From assembly GCA_964016885.1 (NCBI GenBank), contig OZ024741.1, forward strand, positions 238,452,001 to 238,516,000: a stretch of DNA of 64,000 bases, read 5' to 3'. Origin of the DNA: Eledone cirrhosa. Lineage: Eukaryota. Positions 1 to 50,213 of this stretch are shown here, piece by piece. Made by a program: the position numbers and the translations under genes. Every line of letters begins with the position of its first letter. Position 1 is the stretch's first letter. Below the pieces are notes generated by a model, which had not been told where the DNA came from, made no database searches, and was given only the letters and a program-made list of their open reading frames with translations.

Positions 1-354
1 CTTCATATAATCTTCAGATGCCAGATTATATGGGGCTAAATGTCCTTTTCTTCCATCTAGTATTGATACTAATGATATATGAACAAGAATTCCATATATT
101 ATACCCATATTTCTGAAGCCTTTTGCCCAATGTATGATAAATCATGTCATTTATTTCTTTCTTTCTCAAGATATAACGAACATATTTCCAAATATATATT
201 CTTCGATATTACTTTGAATTAATAAGTTGTGTGTGCTAATTAATGGAATTTCATTTTAAAACAGAAGTAATGTTCTAATTTTATTGAAGTATTTATGTTA
301 AAAATAAAATAATCTCCAAGCCAGGATAATTGCAGTTGTGTTAACTTGAGCTTA

Positions 355-443
355 CTATTTTTTATATATTGGTTCTAAATATGTATCTTGTTCATGTTCA
401 CCTTTTGGTGTTGGTGGGATATTTGGTGTGTAGTTACTGTATT
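355..443 (-). CDS. Pcdh: P1 terminal coding exon 3 (EYSNYTPNIPPTPKGEHEQDTYLEPIYKK*)
   Basis: ttttccag| acceptor, in frame with exon 2, ends TAG TAA; conserved in all six genes. Confidence 0.9.
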
Positions 444-559
444 CTGGAAAATAGATAAATACATTATAAATAGTATTAGAAGGGAAAGTTATCTTTATAT
501 GTATGGAAAAATATTCTTTTCTAAATGAAGCAACTATTATCATATTCATTTTTATGATA

Positions 560-808
560 ATAATGAAAATTATTGTGTACAGTTCTCAGGTGCACTACAA
601 CTAATCAAAGGTGCATGTATACTACATAGAATAATGTACAAATGCCAGGAAAGTGAATAGTGTTTGAGTCATGATACATACACATGCATGCATGTGTATG
701 GAGGTGGAATATCAGGTGTGGTGTTGGTGAATTTCAGGAAGCATGGGAGATTTGAATAATGCAGTGTCCCAACAGCTAACACCTGATACAGGTAATTTGT
801 TCTGTGCA
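560..808 (-). mobile_element. CR1-type LINE 3' fragment in P1 intron 2
   Basis: Matches the 3' end/UTR of the CR1 copies at 36800 and 62820; paralogous copies at 9441-9690 and 17550-17685. Confidence 0.8.
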
Positions 809-7345: not shown

Positions 7346-8063
7346 ATAAAACGAGGGACAGAATTTAAACAAATGCCTTTCAAATGAAGATTTTTATTTA
7401 ACTCTATTTGAACATATAGAAACCTGAAGTTATTTATACTTCAGGGCAAAATGAAAGTGACTGAAACAATATCGTCATCATTTTATGTTCTCTTTTTCAT
7501 GATTACATGGTTATAAATATAAAATTATATTGAATTGAATTCTAAGCAAATGCAAATGAGTTTCATTTATATTATAAGAAGCAGAGTGAAGTTAATTGAT
7601 TCATAGAGTATTTAACAATATATATGCAGTGTAATATAATTATTCTGTATCTTGATATTCTCAATCATATACAAGCAGTCCTGATATCATCTATAATTAA
7701 GACACAATTTAAATGAAGAGAAATAATTATATATCTAATGTTCCCTGTTTAACCTGAGTAGTAGAAATATATTTAATATTATATATGAATTATAACAATG
7801 TATATGGAATTATGTTATTAAATACAATAGATTGACAGATCAGTATTTGCATAATGGTCACTGTTAAAAATATCTTTCTTCCCAAAGTAACTACACTACT
7901 ACAGTAGTAATTGCTCTTGTAAATGGCTACATTGCTCTCTGGCTATCTATTATAAAGTATTATCATGAAATACTGTTATATTTATAATCTATTTCTCATA
8001 TCTTCATGTGAAATATATATTCCCAGAGCATCTAATGTAAAATGTCAATATAAAGAGACTTAC

Positions 8064-8230
8064 CTATAATGTTTAATCCTTTGTTTGTGTCTCTTACAGA
8101 AGACATTTATTCTGACGTAGTGTTCCAGTGTAACTGCTGCTGTAGTAGTGTGACAATGGCAGTATCTTGATGATGTAGATTTGTGAGTCATAGTGGGAGC
8201 CAACTACACTTTGGATGATCTTATTTATCT
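8064..8230 (-). promoter_or_regulatory. Conserved module X1: putative promoter/non-coding first exon of P1
   Basis: GATAAATAA, TGACTCA (8184-8190), CAGCAGCAGTTACACTGGA, AG|GTAAGT donor; five copies in the window. Confidence 0.65.
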
Positions 8231-9033
8231 GTACATATTGTATTTATTAAATTTAATTTATTTTACCCAATGTTTCAAATATTAAATAATGAATTTTGCA
8301 ATAAATATTTCTGATTTATACTTAACTACATTAAAATATTTATAAGTGATATTCATTCCTTGTACACGGGATGTTTACAGCACACTAATGTGTACACAAA
8401 TTCACTGAGTGTTATATGTAAAACATTATTTTCTAACCTCAGTGATAATTTCATAAGACTTATTGCAGAGGATTAATCTATAAAATATTTACTAACGTTA
8501 TAAATTATATATATTTTTTTACAATATCTTCTGTTACTTTATTATTTTTTCATAATATAAATAATAATATGAAATATCAATGTGTATTTAAAATGTTAAT
8601 ATTATTATCATCACCATAGTAGAAATGGTAAGTAGTTGGAATAGTGTTCTTCATATAATCTTCGGATGGTAGATTATATGGGGCTAAATGTCCTTTTCTT
8701 CCCTCTAGTATTGATACTAATGATATATGAACAAGAATTCCATATTATACCCATATTTCTGAAGCGTTTTGCCCAATGTATGATAAAAATAAACCAATGA
8801 GGATATTTGGGAATTCTCTAAAATCATGTCATTTAATTCTTTCCTTCTCAAGATATAACAAACATATTTCCAAATACATATTCTTCAATATTACTTTGAA
8901 TTAATAGGTTGTTTACTAATTAATCTAATTTCATTTTAAAACAGAAGCAATGTTCTAATTTTATTGAAGTATTTATGTTAAAAATAAAATAATCTCCAAG
9001 CAGGATAATTGCAGTTGTGTTAACTTGAGCTTA

Positions 9034-9122
9034 CTATTTTTTATATATTGGTTCTAAATATGTATCTTGTTCATGTTCACCTTTTGGTGTTGGTGGGATA
9101 TTTGGTGTGTAGTTACTGTATT
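9034..9122 (-). CDS. Pcdh: P2 terminal coding exon 3
   Basis: 89 nt from acceptor to TAG, same peptide as P1 exon 3. Confidence 0.9.
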
Positions 9123-9243
9123 CTGGAAAATAGATAAATACATTATAAATAGTATTAGAAGGGAAAGTTATCTTTATATGTATGGAAAAATATTATTTTC
9201 TAAATGAAGCAACTATTATCATATTCATTCTTATGATAATAAT

Positions 9244-10577: not shown

Positions 10578-12977
10578 CTGTGGAACAGGTGGAAGTCTTC
10601 TGGGTGTTGTTGAGAATTTCCATTCATTAGTTAACTGCTCCATCTCTGGATAATATGGACTTTTAGGGTTTATTGACTGAAGATTTCTAGCAAATATATC
10701 ATCTGCATTTCTGGTTATTGCAACAGGATTGTTAGTGTGATACAGTATTTGTCTCATCTCAGTCGGAGATAGGAATTTTGGATTATCTATTGTTGTAGGT
10801 GAGTTATTGGTGTGATTAATACATCTGAAAACACACAGTGTTATTGACACTACAATAGCCACAGATATTATTACAGCTGCTGCTACAATGATAATTACCC
10901 AAGTCATATTGAGGTTGTTACCAGTCTGTAAGTGGACTGCAGTCAACATTGGAGATGTATCATTACTAACAAACAGTGTTAGTATGATAGAAGTTGTTAC
11001 TGATTGAACTGGTGTACCACCATCTTTCACTATAAACTGTAGGTCATATGTTCCTGCATCATTTTGGTAAACTGCCCGAGAGAAAGATAAGACACCAGTG
11101 TGGGAGTTGACTGTAAACAGGTTTTTATCATTAGATCTCAGTATTCCATATGTGAGGAAAGCATTGTTTCCAGTGTCTTTGTCAGAGGCTTTCAGAATGG
11201 TGATGTCTTTCTTACTGTGTGGATCATAGTGGACATCTAGATTGTAAGGGTCATTAATAGGAAAAGTAAAATAGGGGGCATTATCATTTTTATCTAGAAT
11301 CTCAATAACAATATTGGCAGTGTTATTCAGAGAAGGTGTTCCATTATCTTTGACTAAAATCTGGAAGTTATAGATGTCTTTCACTTCCCGATCTATTGAT
11401 TGTGATGTAGAAATAAATCCATATTTTGTAAGTTGGAAAGGAATGTTATCATTGTTGTTATCATTGATGATAGAATATGTAAGTTGACCCCCATCATCAA
11501 GATCAGGGTCTGTAGCATTGATGAAGCCAATAGGGAAGTCAACTTTCTGGTTTTCATAGGTGAGGAATTGGAATGTATCTTTGGTAAAATGTGGTTGTAC
11601 ATCATTGACATCAGTTACTTTGACAGAGAATTGTTTCTTAGTCTTTAACTGAGGTGATCCCATGTCATGACATACAATAGATACAACATAGTGATCTATA
11701 ATTTCCCTATCAAGAGGTTCTTTCACCAATATTTTATATTCTTTAGAACCCATGTTAGAAAGTTGAAATATTTTATGTTGAATATTACACTTAATTTGTC
11801 CATTAGGTCCACTATCAGTGTCAATGACCATAACATAAGCTATAAAACTTCCAAATTTACTTGCTTCTGAAATAGCTGTAGAAGTCTCTGTTAAAGGAGT
11901 TAAAAAATCTATATTTATAGTTGGAGCATTATTTTGAATGCTAACTACATTAATAATTAACACTGCTTTAGAACTTAATGAAGGAATTCCACCATCTCTA
12001 GCTTCAACATACAATTGGTATTTACTTTCTTTATTTCTAAAGAAATCTTCATTAGTGAAAATTTCTCCAGATTTGGAATTTAATTTGAAATATTTTCTGG
12101 CATACTTATTTGTATTTCTGTGTAAATAGTAGGTGATATTTCCATTTTGACCAGAATCTAAATCTGTAGCTGATAAAACAAACACAGGGGAAGATATATG
12201 ATGTGTATCACTGATAGTTGTATTATATATTTTTTCAGTTAATATTGGTCTGTTATCATTTACATCAATAACAGATATTTCTATGTTTAGAAAACCTACT
12301 TTTTGTGGTGAACCTCCATCTTTAGCCACTAACTGTAACATATAAGTGTCTTTTAATTCCCTGTCTAACACTCCTTGTAGAGTAATTTTAAGTATATTCA
12401 TTCCATCAGTTTCTTTAAATATGGTCAGTGAGAATTTCTTACTTTTATCATTAAGTTTATATGTGATGTTAGAATTGAGAACACCAATGTCTTTATCAAC
12501 AGCATTTGGTATTGTTTTAGTTGAACCTTTTCCATCTGTTTCATAAAATATTATTTCCAGTTGATTTTTTGGAAACTCTGGCTGATGGTCATTAATATCT
12601 TCTATGAATATTTTAATCTTCAATATCTTTATAGATGTTTCTGATATTCTCACTGCAACTTTAATAAATTTGGAACATCCTTTGTTATATGTACACAGAG
12701 ACTCAGCATCCAGTGTCTGTGTAGTGTATAGTTTTCCTGTGTTGGTGACATTGAATAAGTGAGAACCACTTGACACTGTCCTTTGTAGTTGTGTAAATGT
12801 AATGAGACTGTGTTGTTGATGTGTAAGGGAGTATGTTAAGTTGGAATCAACAGCAATGTCTCCTATATAGGTGTGAGGACTGTCTTCTTCATTGACATGA
12901 TAAATAAGATCTAAGGACACAACAGAATACATGAATCCGAAGAGAAGATAAATCGGTAGAGTGCTGATTATAACCAT
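10578..12977 (-). CDS. Pcdh: Protocadherin P2, large coding exon
   Basis: 804-aa ORF, 6 cadherin repeats plus TM; donor CAG|GTAACT; acceptor tttttctag at 13020-13021. Confidence 0.96.
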
Positions 12978-15645: not shown

Positions 15646-16362
15646 ATAAAACGAGGGACAAAATTTAAATAAATGCCTTTCAAATGAAGATTTTTATTTA
15701 ACTCTATTTGAACATATAGAAACCTGAAGTTATTTATACTTCAGGGCAAAATGAAAGTGACTGAAACAATATCGTCATCATTTTATGTTCTCTTTTTCAT
15801 GATTACATGGTTATAAATATAAAATTATATTGAATTGAATTTTAAGCAAATGCAAATGAGTTTCATTTATATTATAAGAAGCAGAGTGAAGTTAATTGAT
15901 TCATAGAGTATTTAACAATATATATGCAGTGTAATATAATTATTCTGTATCTTGATATTCTCAATCATATACAAGCAGTCCTGATATCATCTATAATTAA
16001 GACACAATTTAAATGAAGAGAAATAATTATATTTCTAATGTTCCCTGTTTAACCTGAGTAGTAGAAATATATTTAATAGTATATATGAATTATAGCAATG
16101 TATATGAAATTATGTTATTAAATACAATAAATTGACAGATCAGTATTTGCATAATGGTCACTGTCAAAAATATTTTCTTCCCAAAGTAACTACACTACTA
16201 CAGTAGTAATTGCTCTTGTAAATGGCTACATCATTCTTTGGCTATGTATTATATAGTATTATCATGAAATACTGTTATATTTATAAACTATATCTCATAT
16301 CTTCATTTGAAATATATATTCCCAGAACATCTAATGTAAAATGGCAATATAAAGAGACTTAC

Positions 16363-16530
16363 CTATAATGTTTAATCCTTTGTTTGTGTCTCTTACAGAA
16401 GACATTTATTCTGACGTAGTGTTCCAGTGTAACTGCTGCTGTAGTAGTGTAACAATGGCAGTATCTTGATGATGTAGATTTGTGAGTCATAGTGGGAGCC
16501 AACTACACTTTGAATGATCTTATTTATCTG
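16363..16530 (-). promoter_or_regulatory. Conserved module X2: putative promoter/first exon of P2
   Basis: Same motifs; TGACTCA at 16483-16489; donor at 16362. Confidence 0.65.
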
Positions 16531-17345
16531 TACATATTTTATTTATTAAACTTAATTTATTTTACCCAAAGTTTAAAATATTAAATAATGAATTTTGCAA
16601 TAAATATTTCTGATTTATACTAAACTACATTAAAATATTTATAAGTAATATTCATGCCTTGTACACGGGATGTTTACAGCACACTAATGTGTACACAAAT
16701 TCACTGAGTGTTATATGTAAAACATTATTTTCTAACCTCAGTGATAATTTCATAAGACATATTGCAGAGGATTAATCTATAAAATATATACTTACGTTAT
16801 AAATTATATATATATTTTTTACAATATCTTCTATTATTTTATTATTTTTTCATAATATAAATAATAATATGAAATATCAATGTGTATTTAAAATATTAAG
16901 ATATTATTATTATTATCATTATCACCATAGTAGAAATGGTAAATTGTTGGAATAGTATTCTTCATATATCTTTTGATAGCCGATTATGGGGATAAATGCC
17001 CTTTTCTTCCATCTAGTACTGATACTAATGATATATGAACAAGAATTCCATATATTATACCCATATTTCTGAAGATTTTTGCCCAATGTATGATAAAAAT
17101 AAACCAATGAGGATATTTGGGAATACTCTAAAATCATGTCATTTAATTCTTTCTTTCTCAAGGTGTAACAAACATATTTCCAAATACATATTCTTCAATA
17201 TTACTTTGAATTAATAAGTTGTGTGTGCTAATTAATCTAATTTCATTTTAAAACAGAAGCAATGTTCTAATTTTATTGAAGTATTTATGTTAAAAATAAA
17301 ATAATCTCCAAGCAGGATAATTGCAGTTGTGTTAACTTGAGCTTA

Positions 17346-17434
17346 CTATTTTTTATATATTGGTTCTAAATATGTATCTTGTTCATGTTCACCTTTTGGT
17401 GTTGGTGGGATATTTGGTGTGTAGTTACTGTATT
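17346..17434 (-). CDS. Pcdh: P3 terminal coding exon 3
   Basis: 89 nt from acceptor to TAG. Confidence 0.9.
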
Positions 17435-17805
17435 CTGGAAAATAGATAAATACATTATAAATAGTATTAGAAGGGAAAGTTATCTTTATATGTATGGAAA
17501 ATATTCTTTTCTAAATGAAGCAACTATTATCATATTCATTTTTATGATAATAATGAAAATTATTGTGTACAGTGCTCAGGTGCACTACAACTCATCAAAG
17601 GTGCATGTATAGTACATAGAATAATGTACAAATGCCAGGAAAGTGAATAGTATATGAGTCATTATACACACACATGCATACATGTTCCCACTAAATATTT
17701 TATAAAATACATTAATTACTCTTATATTAGTTAAATATGGTTTAATGATATAAATATGTTACAATTGTGCCAGTGAATTAATAAAAAATGAATATCCACT
17801 ATTAC

Positions 17806-21109: not shown

Positions 21110-23030
21110 ATGAAATAATGGAAGGAATTAGTAAACCAAGTCATACAGAATGGGGTCGTTCCGAAGGACTGGCACAGCAGCATCATCATTAACTGCTACA
21201 AGGGTAAAGGAGATGCCCTAGATAGGGGAAACTATGGAGGCATTAAATTAATTGACCAGGTCATGAAGGTCACAGAAAAAGTAATAGCGCAACTAATCAG
21301 AGAGCGAATTGATCTAGATGAAATGCAGTTCGGGTTTGTGTCAGGTAAAAGTACAACAGACGCTCTTTTCATTGTACGACAACTACAGGAGAAGTACCTA
21401 GCTAAAAGTAAACCCTTATACTTAGCTTTTGTTGACTTGGAGAAAGCCTTTGACAGAGTACCCCACTCGATTATCTGGTGGGCCCTTAGAAAACTAGGTG
21501 TTGATGAATGGCTTGTGAGAGATATACAAGCCATGTATAAAGAAACAGTCAGCAAGGTTAGAATTAACAACGAATATAGTGAAAAATTGGTGTTCATCAG
21601 GGCACCGTCCTAAGCCCCCTACTATTTTTTATTGCCCGTCATGCTATAACAGAGAAGTTCAAGACCGGCTGCCTATGGGAACTTCTATACGCAGATGATC
21701 TAACGCTCATAGCTGAATCAATGGCTGAACTAGAGAAGAAATTCCAAACATGGAAGCATAGCCTAGAATCAAAAGGCCTTAAAATTAACCTGTCTAAGAC
21801 TAAAGTTCTAGCTTGTAGGAAGGAAAATAGGGCACTGGTCCCATCTGGGAAATGGCCATGCTCAGTGTGTAGGAAAGGAGTAGGCAGAAACTCCATTTTA
21901 TGTCCCAAATGCAAAGTATGGGTGCATAAAAGATGTAGTGGGATCACAGGTAAGCTAACTAAGAATATAGATTTTATATGTGGCCGGTGCTCTGGTGCAA
22001 TAAGTAGCAGCAAGTGCCCACAGAATACTAGCTCATTCCATTGCACAGATGGTTCTATAGAAATAGTGGACACCTTCCGTTACCTGAGTGACAAAATCAG
22101 CAGTGGTGGAGGGTGCTCTGAAAGTACAGTAGCTAGAGTCAGAACGGGATGGAAAAAGTTCAGAGAGCTTATACCACTATTGGCCGCTAAAGGGTTCTCT
22201 CTAAAAATGAAAGGCAGGCTGTATGATGCCTGCATATGAACAGCAATGTTACATGGCAGTGAGACATGGGCATTGTGCGCAGAGGATATATGCAGACTGC
22301 AGAGGAATGAAGCTTGCATGCTCCGTTGGATGTATAATAGTAATATACGTGAATGGCAAAGCATAAATGAACTAAGGGAGAAATTAGGAATAAGAGGAAT
22401 CAGATGTTGTTTACTCGAGAGAAGACTACGTTGGTATGGTCACGTGATGTGCATAAAAGACGACAGCTGTATAAAAAAGTGCAGGGTGATAAAAATAGAC
22501 GGTAGCCATGGAGTAGGCAGACCCAGAAAAACCTGGGACGACTTGATAAATTCCGACCTCACACACTTACACCTCTCCAAGACAATGTCACTGGAGCGAG
22601 ATCTTTGGCGCTACACAGTAATACAGAAGACCCGCCTTGCCTAAGTACAAAGCGAAACCTACAGTCAGTAGGCACCTCTAACAAAAATACACCCCGTCCC
22701 ACTACCCCCACCCCATCCACACCACCCCTTTCGATGAAAAGTTATGTTGGTACCACAACATCCAGTCCGAAATAAATGAGGTCGTGTAGATGTCACGAAA
22801 AAAAAAACACACAGTCCACGCTGTAATGTGGCTGTGTAGGTAACACGGTAAAAACCTCCCAGTCCACACTGTAAACGCGGTTGGTGTTAGGAAGGGCATC
22901 CAGCCGTAGAAAAGCCGCCAGACAGTCCTATGCGAGCAGGACAACCAATCTTGCCTCAAGTGGGAAAACTCCCGTCCAAACCCATGCAAGCGTGGAAGAT
23001 GGACGTTAAACGACGATGATGATGATGATG
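21110..23030 (+). mobile_element. 5'-truncated RTE-clade LINE (RT with Cys-rich PHD-like insert), frameshifted
   Basis: QFGFVSGKSTTDA, FVDLEKAFDRVPH, LLYADDL, WPCSVCRKGVGRNSILCPKCKVWVHKRC, RRLRWYGHV, GRPRKTW; (GAT)n tail. Confidence 0.92.
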
Positions 23031-23491
23031 TAGGAATTTGTTTAATGGAAAAGTAGTTAAGGTTGGTTCAGCAGGAACTGCATCAGATAATTAGTGAAAT
23101 ATTTAAAAAGCCACTGTAGATAGGCTTGAAGTCATCTATATTAAAGATTTGCTATCAAAATTACAAGAAAATTGAATCAATTGGATATATAAACTTTTTA
23201 TAGTTTATATTATTGTAGAAATTGATTGAAGCACAGTTTCTCAATAAAGAAGTGAAACTGTACTATTTTTGAAACACTGCCATTATTTCTAATTTTTATT
23301 CTTAACCCAATATGGAGAATTTGATATTTCTTTAATCATGTTGTCATTGGTTCAATAATGTTAGATGTTTAATCAGTAAATATTTTGTGCCTAAATAGAT
23401 TTCCAACAAAAGAGTCACTCTCTCTCTGATAAATGTAATAACTAATCCTCTTAACATTATACCTGTTGTCTTTAAAATATAAATTATAAAT

Positions 23492-24680
23492 GATAAGGCT
23501 TTTAATTCTGTGCCACACAAAAGACTTATGGCAAAACTCTCTGCAATGGGTGTGAGGGATGATCTTTTCGACTGGTTGAAATCCTTCATTCTCAGCCAAA
23601 AAGAAGTAGTCACGGTTCTAGGACAGCATTCTTCATCATATGAGATGTCATCTGGTGTACCACAGGGATCTGTTCTTGGTCCCCTTTTGTTTGTGGCATA
23701 TATTAATGACATAGATGCCAACTTACAGAATCCCATGGTACTGAAATATGCAGATGACATCAAGCTGTACCTTGAAATCAAAAGGACTGATCTTGAAATC
23801 TACAACTCTTTCCTACAATCAGACCTGGACACAATGCAGCAATGGATCACAGACTGGCAACTGAAGCTGGCTGTGGACAAGTGTACCACCATGCATTTTG
23901 GGAGGAAAAATCCAGCGTCCACATACTCCCTCCACAACACTGATATCAAGAAGTCCTCTTGTGAACGTGACCTGGGCATTACTGTCAGCAGTGATTTGCG
24001 TTGGACAAAGCATGTCTCTAAGATTGTCAAGAAGGCTGAGGGTGTCTTGGCATCACTCAGCAAGACCTTTGTTAGCCACTCTCCAGCCATCTATTTAAAA
24101 CTGTATACAGCTATGGTACGACCACACTTGGAATTCGCATCATCAGTCTGGAACCCCTATCTTGCTCAGAACATTGACCTCCTGGAAACTGTCCAGAGAC
24201 GTGCAACCAAGCGCATACCCTCCATCAGACACCTACCATACTCTGAACGCCTTGCTTCCCTGGGCATGGATTCATTGAAGCTCCGACGTCTGACAATGGA
24301 CTTGGTAAATACCCACAAAGTTATTAACCATCTTGCCAATTGCAACCCTGAGCACCTTTTTGATCTCCATGTGTCTAACACACGTGGACATGCCTACAAA
24401 ATCAGAAAACAGCACAGCTCCCATGACTTTCGTAAACATTTTTTCATGCTCAGAGTTGCTGAAGCATGGAACAAACTGCCTATGTCAGTTGTTAGCTGCC
24501 GAGACACTGCATCCTTTAAGACACTCATGCTTCCCGAAATACGCCAAAACTACACCTGATGTACCCCTTCCATACACATGCACACGTGTGTATCATGACT
24601 CATGCACTGTTCATTTTCCTGATGTTTGTACATTACCCTATGTACTATACATACACTTTTTGATTATTATTATTATTATT
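23492..24680 (+). mobile_element. 5'-truncated CR1-clade LINE with uninterrupted 349-aa RT ORF
   Basis: KAFNSVPH, SGVPQGSVLGPLLF, KYADDIK, RDLG, VRPHLEFA, WNKLP; (TTA)n tail. Confidence 0.93.
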
Positions 24681-30727: not shown

Positions 30728-31574
30728 TATATAATAAAATTAAGAACATAATGATATCAAATTTGCTTCTATTAATTAATAAAATTAAATAAATTAGATA
30801 TTAGAAAATTCTTGCTTTCTTCCTTTTCATTTTTCTAAAGTTTATGTAGCAAATTATGTTGAAGTTAGTTGATTTACAAGATATTTTACTGTGATATGTA
30901 GCATATATTAACACTATATTTACAGTGACATTCATCTTTATATGTGTGTATGTGTGTGTCATTTTCTATTGATTCATATAAATTTATTAAACATATGACG
31001 GTTTCTTTAGACTACAAGAAATAACTAAATGCAAATAATATTTGTAACTTAAAACATGAATGTCTTTCTTTATTCTATTAGTGAAATAAATTGCAATAAA
31101 GAACCAAACCAAAGAGAAACTTAATGCTAAATGAAATTATATTATTATAATATCTTGAAATTATGGATTTTATGTACTAACAGTCCTTAGATGGTTTTAT
31201 ATTTATTTCTGTAACTAATACACTATTTAATTGGAGAAATATATTATTCAAATATTCCCATTTTAAACTGACTTATAAAATAATATGTGAAATATATCAA
31301 TATATATGAAAGTATATAATGAAATAAAATCAATTGACAAAATCAGTATTTGAATAATGGTTGCAGTTAAATATATTTTCCTTCTCAAATTAACTATACT
31401 ACTGTAGTAGAAATTGCTCTTAGTAATGGCTACATCATTCTCTGGCACTCTATTTTATAATCTGTTTATATCATCATGAAATACACATTTATTTATTATC
31501 TATTTTTCATATCTCCCTGAGAAATATATATAACCAAAATATTTAATGTAAAATTGCAATGTAAAGAGACTTAC

Positions 31575-31741
31575 CTTCATTGTTTAATCCTTTGTTTGTG
31601 TCTCTTACAGAAGACATTTATTCTGACGTAGTGTTCCAGTGTAACTGCTGCTGTAGTAGTGTGACAATGGCAGTATCTTGATGATGTAGATTTGTGAGTC
31701 ATAGTGGGAGCCAACTACACACTGGGGGATTTTATTTATTT
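31575..31741 (-). promoter_or_regulatory. Conserved module X3: putative promoter/first exon of P3
   Basis: Near-identical to X1 despite diverged flanks; TGACTCA at 31695-31701; box reads AATAAATAA in this copy. Confidence 0.65.
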
Positions 31742-31971
31742 GTGCATATTGTATTTATCAAAATGAAGGAAATTTGCAATGGCTATTTCTGATCTATATT
31801 AAACTATATATAAGTAACTTCTTGTACAAAGATGCTTCCAGCACAGTAGTGTATGTACAGGCACATATGCACAGAGTATTGCAGTATGCAAAATATTAAT
31901 TTCTAGCCTCAGCAGCAATTTTATAAGACATATTGCAGAGGACTAGACTATGATCAAAATAAAACAATAAT

Positions 31972-36796: not shown

Positions 36797-37832
36797 ATGC
36801 TCAGGTGCACTACAACTCATCAAAGGTGCATGCATAGTACATAGAATAATGTACAAATGTCAGGAAAGTGAATAGTGTATGAGTTATGATATACATGTGT
36901 GCATGTCTATGGAGGGGGAATATTAGGTGTAGTGTTGGCGAATCTCAGGAAGCCTGGAGGTTTTAAAGGATGCAGTGTCTCAACAGCTAACAACTGATGC
37001 AGGTAGTTTGTTCCATGCTTCAGCAACTCTGAGCGTGAAAAAATATTTCCGAAAGTCATGGGAGCTGTGCTGTTTTCTGACTTTGTTGGCATGCCCACGT
37101 GTGTTAGAACATGGAAATCAAAAAGGTACTCAGGGTTGTTGTTGGCAAGATGGTTAATAATTTTGTGGGTGTTTACCAAGTCAGTTGCCAGACGTCGGAG
37201 CTTCAATGTATCCATGCCCAGGGAAGTAAGGCGTTCAGAATATGTTAGATGCTTGATGGAGGGTATTTGCTTGGTTGCACATCTCTGAACAGTTTCTAGG
37301 CCATCAATGTTCTGAGCAAGATAGGAGTTCCAGACTGGAGATGCAAATTCTAAGTGTGGCCACACCATAGCTATATACAGATTTAAATAGATAGCTGGAG
37401 AGTGGCTGACAAAGGTCTTGCTGAATGATGCTAAGGCACCCTCTGCCTTCTTGACAATTTTAAAAGTGTGCTTCGTCCAATGCAAATCGCTGCTGACAGT
37501 AATGCCCAGGTCACATTCACAAGAAAACTTCTTGATATTAGTGTTGTGGAGGGAGTATGTGGATGCTGGGTTTTTACTCCCAAAATGCATGGTGGTACAC
37601 TTGTCCACAGCTAGCTTGAGTTGCCAGTCCATTGTTGCACTGTGTCCAGGTCAGATTGCAGGCAAGATCTATAGTGTTCAGGATCTGTCCTTTTTATCTT
37701 AAGGTACAGCTTGATGTCATCTGCATATTTCAGGACTGTGGCATTCTTTAAGTTGGCATCTATATCATTAATATATGCAACAAACAAAAGGGAGCCAAGA
37801 ACAGATCCCTGTGGCACACCAGATGACATCTT
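36797..37832 (-). mobile_element. 5'-truncated CR1-clade LINE upstream of P4
   Basis: ORFs 37611-37829 (SGVPQGSVLG, KYADDIK) and 36907-37632; frameshifted. Confidence 0.92.
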
Positions 37833-39316
37833 ATACTCACTACAATACGATTTTGAAGTACACAGTGTTCCACTATTATCTAGTTTGGTCTTTTGTGCTT
37901 GAAAACTGTATTATAGTGTTCACTATCAGTTACTGTAAAAGAGTTTTTTTTCTTAGTGTCATCTACATCTGATAGCTAAGCACTGATCTTGAATGTGATA
38001 TGGCTATTAATTATTGCGGTTATTTTGATGTATTCTGTATTATTTTATGATGGGTAGGAGTGTTACTGTTTTAGGAAAAAACATACTAATATTGTTCTTG
38101 CTTGATGTTTAATTATTTTTATGTATGTTTGTATGTTTGAAGATATAAACATGCATGTGTATGTGTTGTAATGGACTATTGATGAAACATAATCCCCCAT
38201 ATGTTAATGTGATCTTTTTAGTTTTAATGTTTCTGTATGTTTTGTTTTTTAATAACATTTGGTAATATAAAATGTGTTATTTGTTTAAGTCTAGAGGACG
38301 ATAAATAAAGTTCCTAGCCAGAACTGACAGAATACTTGATGCTATTTGTGATTGATTGAAAACTAATGTGCATTTATTTAAATATAATTTCAGCTGAATA
38401 AAGGTTGTGTGTGTATATCATGTACTTAATGATCATCACAATTTATTTTTTAATGTTTGTATATCTACAAATATCAAAAATACAGTCAAGATGATTTACA
38501 CTGTATAAATTTGATTTACAAATCAAATGTGTACCAGTTCAATTAAGTAGTAGTAATGAAATAGTACTAATCAATGAGGAAATATTTATGGGGATTCATA
38601 TATATGTTAGTATACATAAACCTCGTTACTTCATAAAAAGGGCAACAACATGATATCAAATGTCTTTCAAATAAAAGTTTTCATTTAACTCTTATTGAAA
38701 ATATAGAAACTTTAATTTGCTTGTATTAGTGAGTAAAACGAAAGTAACTAACATATAATATTCATCATCATCATCATTTAACGCCCATTTTTTCTGAATT
38801 ATATTTATGAGAAGTAGAGCAAAGTTATTTGATTCACAGAGTAGTTAACAATATATTTGCAGTGAAATATACTAGTTCATTACTGTATATTTTGATATTA
38901 GGAATCATTTACAAGCAGTCCTTATGTCCTCTTTAATTAATACATGATTCAACTGGAGAGAAATAATATTAATAATATTCTGTTTAAACAGACTTAGAGA
39001 AATATTATATTAAATAATAATATATATATAAGTTATAGCAATATATATGAAATTATATAATTAAATACAATAAATTGACAGATCTCTATTTGTGTAATGG
39101 TTGCTGTTAAATATATCTTTCTTCACAAATGTTACTATGGTAGTAGTAATTTTTCCTAGTAATGGCTACATCATTCTATGACTCTCTCCATTTTCTAGTC
39201 TACAGATGTGCATTATTATAAAATGCACGATTGTACATTATCTATTTCTTATAAATGAATATGAAATATATATTGCCAATATATTTAATATAACATGGTA
39301 ATGTAAAGAGACTTAC

Positions 39317-39484
39317 CTACATTGTTTAATCCTTTGTTTGTGTCTCTTACAGAAGACATTTATTCTGACATAGTGTTCCAGTGTAACTGCTGCTGTTGTA
39401 GTGTGACAATGCCAGTTTCATGATGGTATAAATTTGTGAGTCATAGTAGGAGCCAACTACACTACAGAAGATTTTTATTTATCT
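39317..39484 (-). promoter_or_regulatory. Conserved module X4: putative promoter/first exon of P4
   Basis: TGACTCA at 39437-39443; donor AG|GTAAGT. Confidence 0.65.
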
Positions 39485-40255
39485 GGGCATATTGAATTTC
39501 TTTAAATATATTTTATTCGATGAATAAACTATTTAATAATGAAATTTACATAAGTATTTTTGATGTATATTAAACTACATTATAAGATATATAAGTAATA
39601 ATTACCTTTTGTACATGGATATGTACAGCACACTAACATATGTGCACACGCACATGTACATATTCATGAATTGAATTCTGCAGTATGTAAAACATTAACT
39701 TCTAACCTTCTTGGCGATTTCATAAGATATATTGTAGAAGGATTAAACCACAAAATATTTATTTAGGTTAAATATTTTATAGATTTTCTGCAATTTTTTC
39801 TGTTATTTTAAAAATAATTTTAATAATAATTTATATTGTAATAATTGAAATGATTAAGTATTTCAGAATATTAAAGATGGTAGCATAAATTGTAGCTTGT
39901 TGGAATAATTTTATTCTAGAAGTGTTGTTTCTCTAATCTTCAGACTGCTGATTATATGATGCTAAAAGTCCTTGTTCCACTATTGACACCAGTAATATAC
40001 ACATAAGAATTGAAATTACTATATCATTTTCCTTGTACATTTTGGCCGAGTGTATGATCAATATAAACCAACAATGACATTTGAGAATATTTTGAATTTA
40101 AATTATTTAATTAATAGAGATTTAATGAAAACATTTGCTAATAGATATTTCTCAGTGTATGAGTTTGGATTAATTATTTGCCAATTATTCTTATTTTATT
40201 TAAACACAGAAGCAACATCCTGGGAAAGGAATTGTAGTTGTTAACATTGTGTTTA

Positions 40256-47905: not shown

Positions 47906-49408
47906 AGAGTACATTGAAAAATCATGTCATTCTTTTTTACTAGAGAAAGGGGTTGTGCCCATGGCTATTACTGGCTATATGTATTTTATGTTTGTTTGTA
48001 ACATATGGAGAAGGGGAGAGGTAATAACTGTTTCTACTTTAGGCACAAGGTAATAACATTACGAAAAGAGTGTTGTGGTGTAGTTCTTGTAGGTAATTTC
48101 TTATTTTTTTAATGCTTTGTCTTAGATCTTTAAAGATGTAGTAGCAAGAATTTTGGCATTTGGAGTGGATAGTAGTCTCAAAATATGGACTGTAATTTTG
48201 TAAGAGATTTTGGTAGATGCTGTAATTGTTTGAAACCCAATGTATTGGTTTATTTCTTGTTTCTGGTATGTTGTGTTCATGAGTATTTCTAGTGTAATTA
48301 ATTATCTATGTATTTTGGTGACAAACATTATATTAAAAATTTAAATTATATTTTGTGAAATTAAATATTAAATTACTTTTGAAGTTATACATCTTACATA
48401 AAATATACCAATGATTTTTAAAAAGGAATGATAAGATGAGGATAATGATTGTCTTTTACAATTTGTTGTTCTTATCTAAATGATATGAGGAGATAATGAA
48501 ACCTTAATCTCCTTATATTACAGAGAAAAATAAAGTGATGGAAAATGTCACGAAAGAAATGTCAAAAATACAATATTTTCATATTTCTAAAAGTGTAATC
48601 TTTAGATTACACTTCTGTTAAAATTCATATTTTTAATAGGGTAACATCTTGAAAAATCTAAATATTTATGTAGGTAGTTGGTTCATTGAGCATTTTAAGA
48701 ATATATTTTTACTTCTGATTTTAAATTTCCCAAAGTGTACAAAATATTTATTAGCCAAGAAAAAATAATGATAGCGAATAGAAACTGGAAGTTAGTATTA
48801 AAAAAAACTATATTTAGTAATCAAAATCATTGACTCTATTGAATGAAAATATAGTTATTATACATGTATGTATAATATTATTAATACAATATACATCGTT
48901 AAATTAAGATGTATTTTCTCATAAAATTTTACATTATTTTAAAAGAACAAAAATATTGTAAATCAATATGTGATGTAATAAATATTGTAAAATATTGGTT
49001 ATAGATAGAAATTAATTCAAGAACTTAATTTCTACAATTGGTAATTATTATTTTAGTATCAATAAAGACATATTTATTAATAACGAATTAAACTGCTTAA
49101 ACTTCATAATACCAACAGTAAATTGAAAATGAGATATTTGTCATATGTTGAAAATATACTATTCAAATAATTTTAGTTGACAGATCAAAAATTTTGTTTA
49201 ATGGTAATTGTCAAAGATATCTTTGTTCTAGAAGTGACTATACTATTTTAGTAGCTAATCTTGATAATGGAGGAATGGATGTTTCTCCATTTTCTCATTA
49301 ATATGTATTCCTCTTGCAGATGTAGACAGTTTTATCTGTTATCCAATTCACCTACCTCAATATATTATCTAAATAATTAATGTAAAATTGCAGTGTAAAA
49401 AGACTTAC

Positions 49409-49576
49409 CTATTTTGTTTACTCCTTTGTTCTTGCCTCTTATAGAAGGCATTCATCATGGCGGAGTGATCCAGTGTAACTGCTGCTGTAGTAGTGCCACA
49501 ATAGCAGTATCTTAATGGTATAGATTTATGAGTCATGGAGAGATGATAGTTTCATTTTAAAGAATTTTATTTATCG
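49409..49576 (-). promoter_or_regulatory. Conserved module X5 (most divergent): putative promoter/first exon of P5
   Basis: Many substitutions, but TGACTCA (49529-49535), CAGCAGCAGTTACACTGGA, donor and spacing are retained. Confidence 0.6.
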
Positions 49577-50213
49577 ATATATATTGTATAGACCACATTA
49601 AAATTACTTTTCACTGTGACTGAAGTTTATATAATGAGTATTTCATTTTGATCTATAGAAAAACATAGTTTATATCCAATTATGTTCCCTAAAGATGAAT
49701 GAGTATGTGCTCATATGTGTGTGCTCATATATATATATATATATATATATATTCATGCACATACAAACACTCATGTTTTAATTTCTATACTTAACAGCTA
49801 CCTCACAATAATTCTTACATTAAATGTTGAACCACAAAGTGATTACTCCTTTAAAGTAATGTAAAATTGTAGAATTTCCTTTAATCATATTAATATAATT
49901 TTATTATCTATTTATAATTTTAAAGTAAGTGTAAAATAACCACTAATATTTTACTATTTAAAAACTAGTAGACATTGATAGTAAATAGTGATCTTTCACC
50001 CAAGATCAATAAAATAATATTGGTGTGAATCTAAACACATATACACACACCCATTATATGCTCTTAAGTATTGTCACATTTGTGAATATTTATGATTTCA
50101 ATTATTTTTGTTTTTATCTTAAACATAGTTTCCATGTAAATAATTGTAGTTATTTAATATATATATATACTAGAAAAGGGAAGTAAGGTTCTATAGAAAA
50201 CAGTGGATATAGG

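Follow-up and report, generated by a model that had tools for sequence, protein, structure and literature searches.

We analysed a window of 64,000 nt from Eledone cirrhosa (GCA_964016885.1, contig OZ024741.1, positions 238,452,001-238,516,000), and all comparisons of neighbouring genes were made within it. Its minus strand carries six complete protocadherin genes in tandem, here referred to as P1 to P6, with ORFs of 806-814 codons. Each encodes a signal peptide, six cadherin repeats (EC1-EC6, Pfam cadherin repeats) and one transmembrane (TM) helix, with the ectodomain in a single large exon, as is typical of protocadherins, and the closest solved structures are the protocadherins 6VG1 and 6VG4. 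The large coding exons, which extend from the signal peptide through EC1-EC6 and the TM helix to the start of the tail, are located at 1717-4125 in P1 (a few codons before the ATG included), 10578-12986 in P2, 18494-20902 in P3, 34041-36449 in P4, 43095-45503 in P5 and 54419-56830 in P6. They were delimited by ORF and donor site, in P2 also by Pfam and a structural model, and are 91-95% identical to each other. Following the codon numbering of the six-gene alignment (EC1 26-136, EC2 137-246, EC3 247-355, EC4 356-463), the P2 domains lie at 12914-12582 (EC1), 12581-12252 (EC2), 12251-11925 (EC3) and 11924-11601 (EC4). Strand positions were taken from a single-chain AlphaFold model (pLDDT 74.8, pTM 0.48), which was used for this alone.

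Two coding exons with GT-AG borders were identified downstream of the large exon in each of the six genes, at 1175-1028 and 443-355 in P1 (355-1175 overall), 10036-9889 and 9122-9034 in P2 (9034-10036), 17953-17806 and 17434-17346 in P3 (17346-17953), 33017-32873 and 32591-32503 in P4 (32503-33017), 41327-41183 and 40344-40256 in P5 (40256-41327), and 52749-52593 and 51425-51337 in P6 (51337-52749), all on the minus strand. Their translations match the tails of octopus proteins, that of P1 matching the octopus proteins P0004 and P0007. The genes are thus same-strand duplicates of a full gene, and the arrangement of the vertebrate loci, at which variable exons are joined to shared constant exons, was not found in P1-P6. 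With a separate pair of downstream coding exons in every gene, diversity among P1-P6 arises without alternative splicing of coding exons, in agreement with an earlier note on this sequence. A database search with EC1-3 returned proteins of O. vulgaris as the best (79-80%), with O. vulgaris, Argonauta and O. bimaculoides among the top matches. The nearest relatives of P1-P6 are therefore cephalopod protocadherins, as expected of a coleoid sub-array; such sub-arrays are described, in the available parts of Albertin et al. 2022 (PMC9068888) and Styfhals et al. 2019 (PMC6339937), as full-gene duplicates that are arrayed in tandem in one orientation, have several exons and lack shared constant exons, an architecture which P1-P6 share.

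Within EC2 of P2, two adjoining tracts point to different neighbours. The tract at 12427-12575 (A strand, AB loop, and B and C strands; codons 139-188) is identical to P4 35890-36038 at 147 of 149 positions, exactly the two mismatches in about 149 nt that had been claimed. These fall at 12453 and 12525, where the P2 states are both silent and present in no other copy, and the ends of the tract are set by mismatches at 12426 and 12576. The adjacent tract at 12275-12424 (DE loop to G strand, codons 189-239), which had been described as matching P1 and P3, is identical to P1 3414-3563 and P3 20191-20340 across 150 nt, the identity between P1 and P3 extending to 164 nt. Thus, P2 differs from P4 at 3/150 nt over codons 139-188 and then at 24/147 over codons 189-237, against 25/150 and then 1/147 in the comparison with P1. 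At the 128 sites that discriminate P1 from P4, P2 shows 23 successive P4 states followed by 24 successive P1 states (run test, p = 3.4e-10, and 2e-8 when corrected over 60 triplets). Ten nucleotides are exclusive to P2 and P4, with identical codon choices, and one of them is silent. P2 resembles P1 in its flanks and on either side of the tract, which favours P2 as the acceptor; a donor outside the window is possible.

Recombination was examined with GENECONV-like and PHI-like tests, which were our own scripts and are distinct from the published programs. Permutation of codon blocks in the PHI-type test gave p = 5e-5 for EC2, 5e-5 for EC3, 0.006 for EC1 and 0.13 for EC4-tail, the part where overall incompatibility was highest (0.59). 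The GENECONV-like test over EC1-3 found 7 of the 15 pairs significant after correction, two of which (P2/P6 and P4/P6) lie in a low-variation part of EC1. None of the 105 topologies was accepted by the AU test in all 7 segments; both EC2 halves tolerate one of them (p = 0.069), so that branch lengths, and not topology alone, carry the case in EC2. Of 900 single-tree simulations with clustered rates, 300 for each of 3 rate settings, none attained the run length, the local compatibility or the incompatibility seen in the data. When only silent columns were retained, the PHI-type test gave p = 0.013 for EC1-3, 0.059 for EC2-3 and 0.21 for EC2 alone, a modest support for the mosaic. The statement of the earlier note that no single tree fits these exons was thus upheld, recombination tests of the kind that it asked for gave significant results for EC2 and EC3, and the short-tract exchange between paralogues that it proposed is seen as bounded tracts of near-identity which conflict with the ancestry of their flanks.

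Further exact matches were detected on the minus strand between other members of the array. In EC3, P1 3247-3336 (codons 265-294) matches P5 44625-44714 over 90 nt, and P3 19974-20012 matches P4 35521-35559 over 39 nt, the latter encoding FKLIHKTGEI and not significant alone after correction. P5 45035-45078, in the A strand and AB loop of EC2, matches P6 56359-56402 over 44 nt. In EC4, thus beyond EC2-EC3, P3 19567-19741 matches P5 44168-44342 over 175 nt, with a borderline corrected p of 0.052.

The short protein motifs that had been listed as discordantly shared were compared with 37 units from four other octopods, the longer motifs as cores of 8-10 residues. All those tested are present in the named carriers, while the evidence that they provide is unequal and several are old shared variants. 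PKNQLEIIFY (5 exclusive nucleotides) and FKLIHKTGEI (4 exclusive nucleotides) are each absent from the 37 units and are good evidence. On the other hand, GGSPPKEGIL has no exclusively shared nucleotide and 4 differences between its carriers, and occurs exactly in 7/37 units, and VRKSETF has no exclusively shared nucleotide and 2 differences between carriers. KGFDG, VRKEETF and SSMAML occur exactly in 9/37, 5/37 and 3/37 units, respectively, and the motifs common to P5 and P6 and to P1 and P2 are consistent with the whole-exon tree. The list is a mixture of recent tracts and old shared states.

Over the latter half of EC2, each of P4, P5 and P6 resembles a protein from a species of Octopus (0.83-0.86) more than any of its neighbours (0.75-0.81); in EC1, the nearest relative of a window gene always lies inside the window. 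Judged from these sequence comparisons, the patches represent old variation that predates the split from Octopus and reappears in different combinations among other octopods. A mosaic signal was also detected at the protein level in O. vulgaris (p = 2e-4, 6 units), O. bimaculoides (p = 4e-4, 8 units) and O. sinensis (p = 0.016, 8 units), and marginally in Argonauta (p = 0.049-0.059, 15 units). Two duplicate O. bimaculoides units were excluded from the cross-species mosaic, subfamily coupling and motif comparisons.

Silent divergence is unevenly distributed along the large exon, with a mean dS of 0.21 in EC1, 0.30 in EC2, 0.39 in EC3, 0.20 in EC4, 0.025 in EC5 and 0.078 in EC6. The EC5 value holds over all 15 pairs while the introns of P6 align to none of the others; near-zero silent divergence beside unalignable introns indicates repeated homogenisation. 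Homogenisation is nearly complete in EC5-EC6, the TM helix and the tail, even where the introns of the genes compared do not align, and EC1 is a mosaic too. The exchange is therefore not focused on EC2-EC3, as had been assumed, and involves the whole exon; single tracts are still visible in EC2-EC3 because these domains are the least homogenised. Nor did EC2 tracts act simply as a source of diversity, since the longest of them makes P1, P2 and P3 identical and so erases it. GC3 is 0.29-0.30 in the homogenised part and 0.16-0.19 in EC2-EC4. The dN/dS ratio is below 1 in every domain (0.25 in EC1, 0.37 in EC2, 0.26 in EC3 and 0.11 in EC4).

The introns of P1-P3 are mostly 96-99% alike, and those of P4 and P5 are about 70-75% alike where alignable. 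Divergence among P1-P3 is about 1-3% from EC5 through the introns, compared with 5-14% in most upstream windows, and the near-identity also reaches beyond the last exon, with different 5′ ends. P3 has a signal peptide like those of P4 and P5, with introns and later exons like those of P1 and P2, and is likely a recombinant gene. The near-identity of P1-P3 and the P4/P5-like signal peptide of P3 indicate that long events occurred too.

Public runs were searched for the P2 junction, 5 of the 23 listed being covered; X5 and the other runs with a small share yielded nothing decisive. In the runs X1-X3, which come from one sample, a 73-nt contig (12408-12480) links P4-type and P1/P3-type sites and retains the P2-private state at 12453, its sole difference from the window being at 12425. 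Its short side comprises 19 letters, below the 31 required for bridging, so the support is partial. The T189 codon of P2 in the window was not seen in X1-X3. A 212-nt contig from X3 keeps the P2-private EC1 sites 12634, 12657, 12665 and 12679 and differs at 10 positions in 12545-12569, 7 of which match P1; X2 carries the same variant patch. This contig is unphased, and the variant may be a P2 allele, or come from a sister population or another paralogue; it hints at fast turnover of the patch. No contig covering 12536-12584 was found in X1-X4 at 97% likeness, and only the variant one at 88%, with a filter that drops records, so that this does not amount to absence of the P4-type patch.

Could the P2 mosaic then be a chimera of assembly or consensus? 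The copies are similar enough for it, and the T189 codon missing from the runs would fit. However, a chimera would copy its donor exactly, whereas the tract departs from P4 at two positions, with states seen in no other copy; the junction recurs in contigs of the public sample, and a similar signal is present in independent assemblies of three Octopus species. We regard such an artefact, which the earlier note had itself named as a possible refutation, as very improbable. The silent changes accumulated inside the tract indicate a germline age, and no sign of somatic shuffling was seen. Even less probable are parallel changes at hypervariable sites along a single tree. Most shared states of the P2/P4 tract change amino acids, and some short motifs are spelled with different codons in their carriers, as this would predict; against it stand the ten exclusive nucleotides with the same codon choices and the simulations with clustered rate variation, in which runs did not exceed 19, against the 23 observed, and no excess of local compatibility appeared. 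Parallel change is rejected for the long tracts and is possible for motifs under about 20 nt. Repeated unequal crossing-over alone, with breakpoints inside the exon, would account for the near-identity of P1-P3 from EC5 to beyond the last exon, for their different 5′ ends and for the signal peptide of P3. It is nevertheless improbable as the whole explanation, because the two-sided tracts of 40-175 nt, including those of the non-adjacent pairs P2/P4, P1/P5 and P3/P5, would need two close crossovers each.

We then considered the recognition surface. In EC2-EC3, 28/63 residues are variable in interface motifs and 60/156 elsewhere (p = 0.45, with vertebrate-defined motifs mapped coarsely from a figure legend). 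Neither variation nor exchange was found to concentrate on this surface, the exchange being exon-wide, and with dN/dS of 0.37 and 0.26 in EC2 and EC3 the proposal that EC2-EC3 variation forms specificity modules did not gain support. The contact face of vertebrate EC2 has two halves, of which the AB loop with the B strand falls in the P2/P4 tract and the DE loop with the E strand in the P1/P2/P3 tract. In P2, EC2 thus newly pairs an AB hairpin of P4 type with a DE hairpin of P1/P3 type, and no EC3 patch matched to the P2/P4 patch of EC2 was found.

Covariation was analysed in 241 EC1-4 units (235 and the 6 window genes, after removal of 2 vertebrate proteins and of units not spanning EC1-4), 109 of which were counted as cephalopod by similarity only. 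The six top-ranked pairs are all among positions 110, 124, 387 and 417 (z 16-21), and the pair 124/417 ranks first among the 729 EC1xEC4 pairs. Its charges (K-E or E-K) are +/- in 133 units and -/+ in 99, with no like-charged unit and 9 of other kinds, while 110/387 alternate between K-hydrophobic and acid-basic. On trees built without the coupled columns, changes at 417 coincide with changes at 124 in 11/11 and 10/10 cases, against a null mean of 0.17-0.19 and a maximum of 0.83 (400 pairs); the swap comprises only 4 independent pairs on supported branches (sign test, p = 0.125). Charge classes partly follow taxon, and both are present in every named species of the set. The codons of 124 and 417 are 879 bases apart, far above the tract length, and lie on the F/G strands of EC1 and the B/E strands of EC4, which adjoin motifs of the vertebrate dimer contact in the available text of PMC5115871. 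In P2 the four coupled sites are K124 (12618-12620) and K110 (12660-12662) in EC1 (12618-12662, minus strand), covarying family-wide with E417 (11739-11741) and M387 (11829-11831) in EC4 (11739-11831, minus strand).

K110, K124, M387 and E417 are common to all six genes, so any discrimination among P1-P6 would have to arise elsewhere, mainly in EC2-EC3. This bears on the premise that EC2/EC3 carry much of the specificity in vertebrates, which stands with the addition that, in the available text of PMC5106212, specificity is also encoded in EC1:EC4. EC2:EC3 coupling is weak, the best well-populated pair being 199/329, with 17/33 changes concurrent and 84 opposite versus 25 like charges. The pair 193/247, the strongest long-range coupling among 43 subfamily units (z 6.4) and a hint of a shifted, EC2-centred register, was rejected, since it drops to z 1.5 in the 241 and lies within about one tract length, which points to linkage; lysine 341, common to P2, P4 and P5, was not supported as a partner of 142. 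The EC3-EC4 linker is xNNAP-like and without the DxNDN calcium motif in the 12 commonest forms among the 241 units, and EC3 lacks DRE in the P1-P6 subfamily. The canonical calcium motifs of every vertebrate EC junction are thus not present at EC3-EC4, and the geometry there may differ from that of vertebrates. From the family-wide EC1/EC4 charge swap, the proteins probably form a vertebrate-type antiparallel EC1-EC4 dimer, in which case the EC2-EC3 swaps could matter. The open-access literature yielded no study of binding or structure for cephalopod protocadherins.

Given conversion between real copies, two readings of its consequence were weighed. In the first, EC2-EC3 conversion is favoured for creating homophilic identities, and recombinants spread by positive selection. 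The new combination in the EC2 face of P2, the old variants in other combinations in other octopods and the public-sample contig, which joins P2-private EC1 sites to a different A-strand patch of EC2, speak for it, as do vertebrate experiments in which swaps of few interface residues swap binding preference (as given in the available part of PMC5106212). On the other hand, the interface is not enriched and dN/dS remains at 0.26-0.37, the longest EC2 tract homogenises, the P2/P4 patch of EC2 has no partner in EC3, and the variant contig is short and may belong to another paralogue or a sister population. We consider this reading rather unlikely, and give about equal weight to its opposite, a neutral mosaic in which conversion occurs everywhere and is rarer where the copies have already diverged, EC2-EC3 are relaxed and the proteins are not isoform-specific. 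That silent divergence likewise peaks in EC2-EC3, that non-interface strands vary too and that the four strongly coupled EC1/EC4 sites are the same in all six genes agree with neutrality. Less easily accommodated are the EC2 variants that predate the Octopus split and persist beside homogenised EC1 and EC4-EC6 in several species, and the vertebrate clusters with proven specificity, which show the same domain pattern in the available parts of PMC4978886 and PMC1852091.

In the explanation that we prefer, P1-P6 are mosaics probably made by germline conversion between neighbours, with a nearly uniform part from EC5 to the tail and a reassortment of old variants in EC1-EC3, where specificity is likely to be set. 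Patches of 40-175 bases would be copied between neighbouring genes by germline gene conversion, a mechanism that we hold to be very probable because P2 runs from P1-type to P4-type and back to P1-type in about 200 bases, which one crossover cannot produce. The part of P1-P3 from EC5 to the end of the introns was probably brought to near-identity by longer events, whether unequal crossover or long conversion. Selection would purge most EC2-EC3 conversions, acting against recombinants that cross-react or fail to bind, so that diversity stays and the survivors are a patchwork; we lean towards such preservation of EC2-EC3 differences, with less assurance than for the mechanism itself. A swap like that of P2 would plausibly yield a new binding identity as a by-product and not through a targeted system, and it is doubtful that new specificities are the favoured outcome.

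Regional gene conversion in vertebrate clustered protocadherins was reportedly described by Noonan et al. 2004. In the available parts of the fugu (PMC1852091) and Xenopus/mouse (PMC4978886) papers, conversion is regional and leaves EC1-EC3 or EC2-EC3 little or not converted. P1-P6 resemble these clusters in that dS is lowest in EC5-EC6 and highest in EC2-EC3 and the 3′ part of the large exon is homogenised; they differ in that EC2 itself is cut by 150-nt tracts, in the independent expansion without shared constant exons, and in the GC3 of the homogenised part, near 0.3 here and above 0.5 in fugu. For cephalopods, gene conversion has been proposed as a homogenising force, inferred only from species-specific clades in what is available of PMC9068888 and PMC6339937, to which the tracts, the domain profile and the sub-domain mosaics are added here. 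Protocadherin-cluster conversion as such is thus already known from these four sources, being established in vertebrates and proposed for cephalopods.

The vertebrate clustered and delta protocadherins form antiparallel EC1-EC4 homodimers, for which covarying charge-swapped EC1/EC4 positions are reported in connection with subfamily specificity (PMC5106212, PMC5001838 and PMC5115871, in their available parts). P1-P6 share the six-EC layout and the charge-swapped covarying sites on EC1 F/G and EC4 B/E; the EC3-EC4 linker without DxNDN and the EC3 without DRE set them apart. Our literature search covered open-access text, and neither conversion tracts inside EC2 nor the cephalopod EC1/EC4 charge swap was found there; such tracts may already be on record in supplements or in subscription papers (e.g. 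Wang and Ragsdale 2017). In the peptide-binding exons of the MHC, old variant patches are recombined by short conversion, largely between alleles, and balancing selection is demonstrated. The recombination of patches in a recognition domain is alike in P1-P6, where it takes place between paralogues and selection is inferred at most.

Conversion here cuts within EC2, a domain that the vertebrate papers, in their available parts, call largely spared. P2 compared with P1, P3 and P4 supplies natural half-domain chimeras, and two reciprocal charge pairs are available from the family alignment, which makes an identity code testable with few constructs. A bolder possibility, which we put forward tentatively, is a germline shuffler of the recognition code, in which old EC2/EC3 half-faces would be recombined among full-gene duplicates so fast that the neuronal identity codes would differ between individuals, together with an EC1/EC4 charge lock of two states (K-E versus E-K), by which the cephalopod family would fall into mutually non-binding classes. 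If true, conversion would here not only erase specificity but also create it, an independent route to protocadherin diversity.

The repeat unit shared by P1-P3, of the six tandem protocadherin genes P1-P6, reaches the left edge of the window (1-695, compared with 8649-9243 and 16960-17685), and because it does so more copies are possible past this edge. A non-coding block, 70-96% alike between copies, lies about 0.5-2 kb 3′ of each stop codon (7690-8481, 15990-16780, 31208-31951, 38930-39748 and 49177-49645), and it could be either a 3′ UTR or a promoter cassette of the next gene. At the other end of the genes, most copies carry a pyrimidine run with a terminal AG about 30-50 nt 5′ of the start codon (about 13020 in P2), which suggests a non-coding exon upstream. 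The leader of P1, 5′ of its start codon, holds additional sequence. Between the genes, broken reverse-transcriptase-like reading frames, presumably of the LINE type, were seen at 21119-22239, 23483-24559 and 36907-37650, the first two of which break up the upstream region of P3. In public databases, three octopus protein models from O. sinensis and O. bimaculoides (P0121, P0126 and P0130; 4355-5758 aa), with several EC1-4 units each, appear to be several neighbouring protocadherin genes fused into one model.

In the subfamily of the window genes, the EC3-EC4 linker (about 11920-11945 in P2, minus strand, with equivalents in the other copies) lacks DxNDN and EC3 lacks DRE, and the xNNAP-like linker is family-wide. 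The predicted model could be fitted to crystal structures of EC3-6 at 6-8 Å and to those of EC1-4 at about 50 Å, and because of the latter fit the EC1-4 inter-domain angles of the model are unreliable or bent.

Codon 119 of P2 (window position 12634; codons follow the six-gene alignment) encodes serine in P2 only, with phenylalanine in at least 189 of the 241 EC1-4 units aligned; its covariation partner in EC4 is position 419 (z 10.7). A public sample (X3 record 23 and X2 record 14, from two sequencing runs) showed a differing EC2 A-strand patch at 12545-12569, adjoining the private EC1 sites of P2. This variant, which resembles P1 and one O. sinensis unit, is possibly a patch polymorphism.

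Across the same 241-unit alignment, the charges at EC1 124 and 110 and at EC4 417 and 387 are swapped reciprocally, family-wide (in P2, 12618-12662 and 11739-11831, respectively, minus strand). No like-charged 124/417 pair was found among the 241 units, and both charge classes were present in every named species of the set. The EC1/EC4 charge swap likely defines two classes that would not cross-bind.
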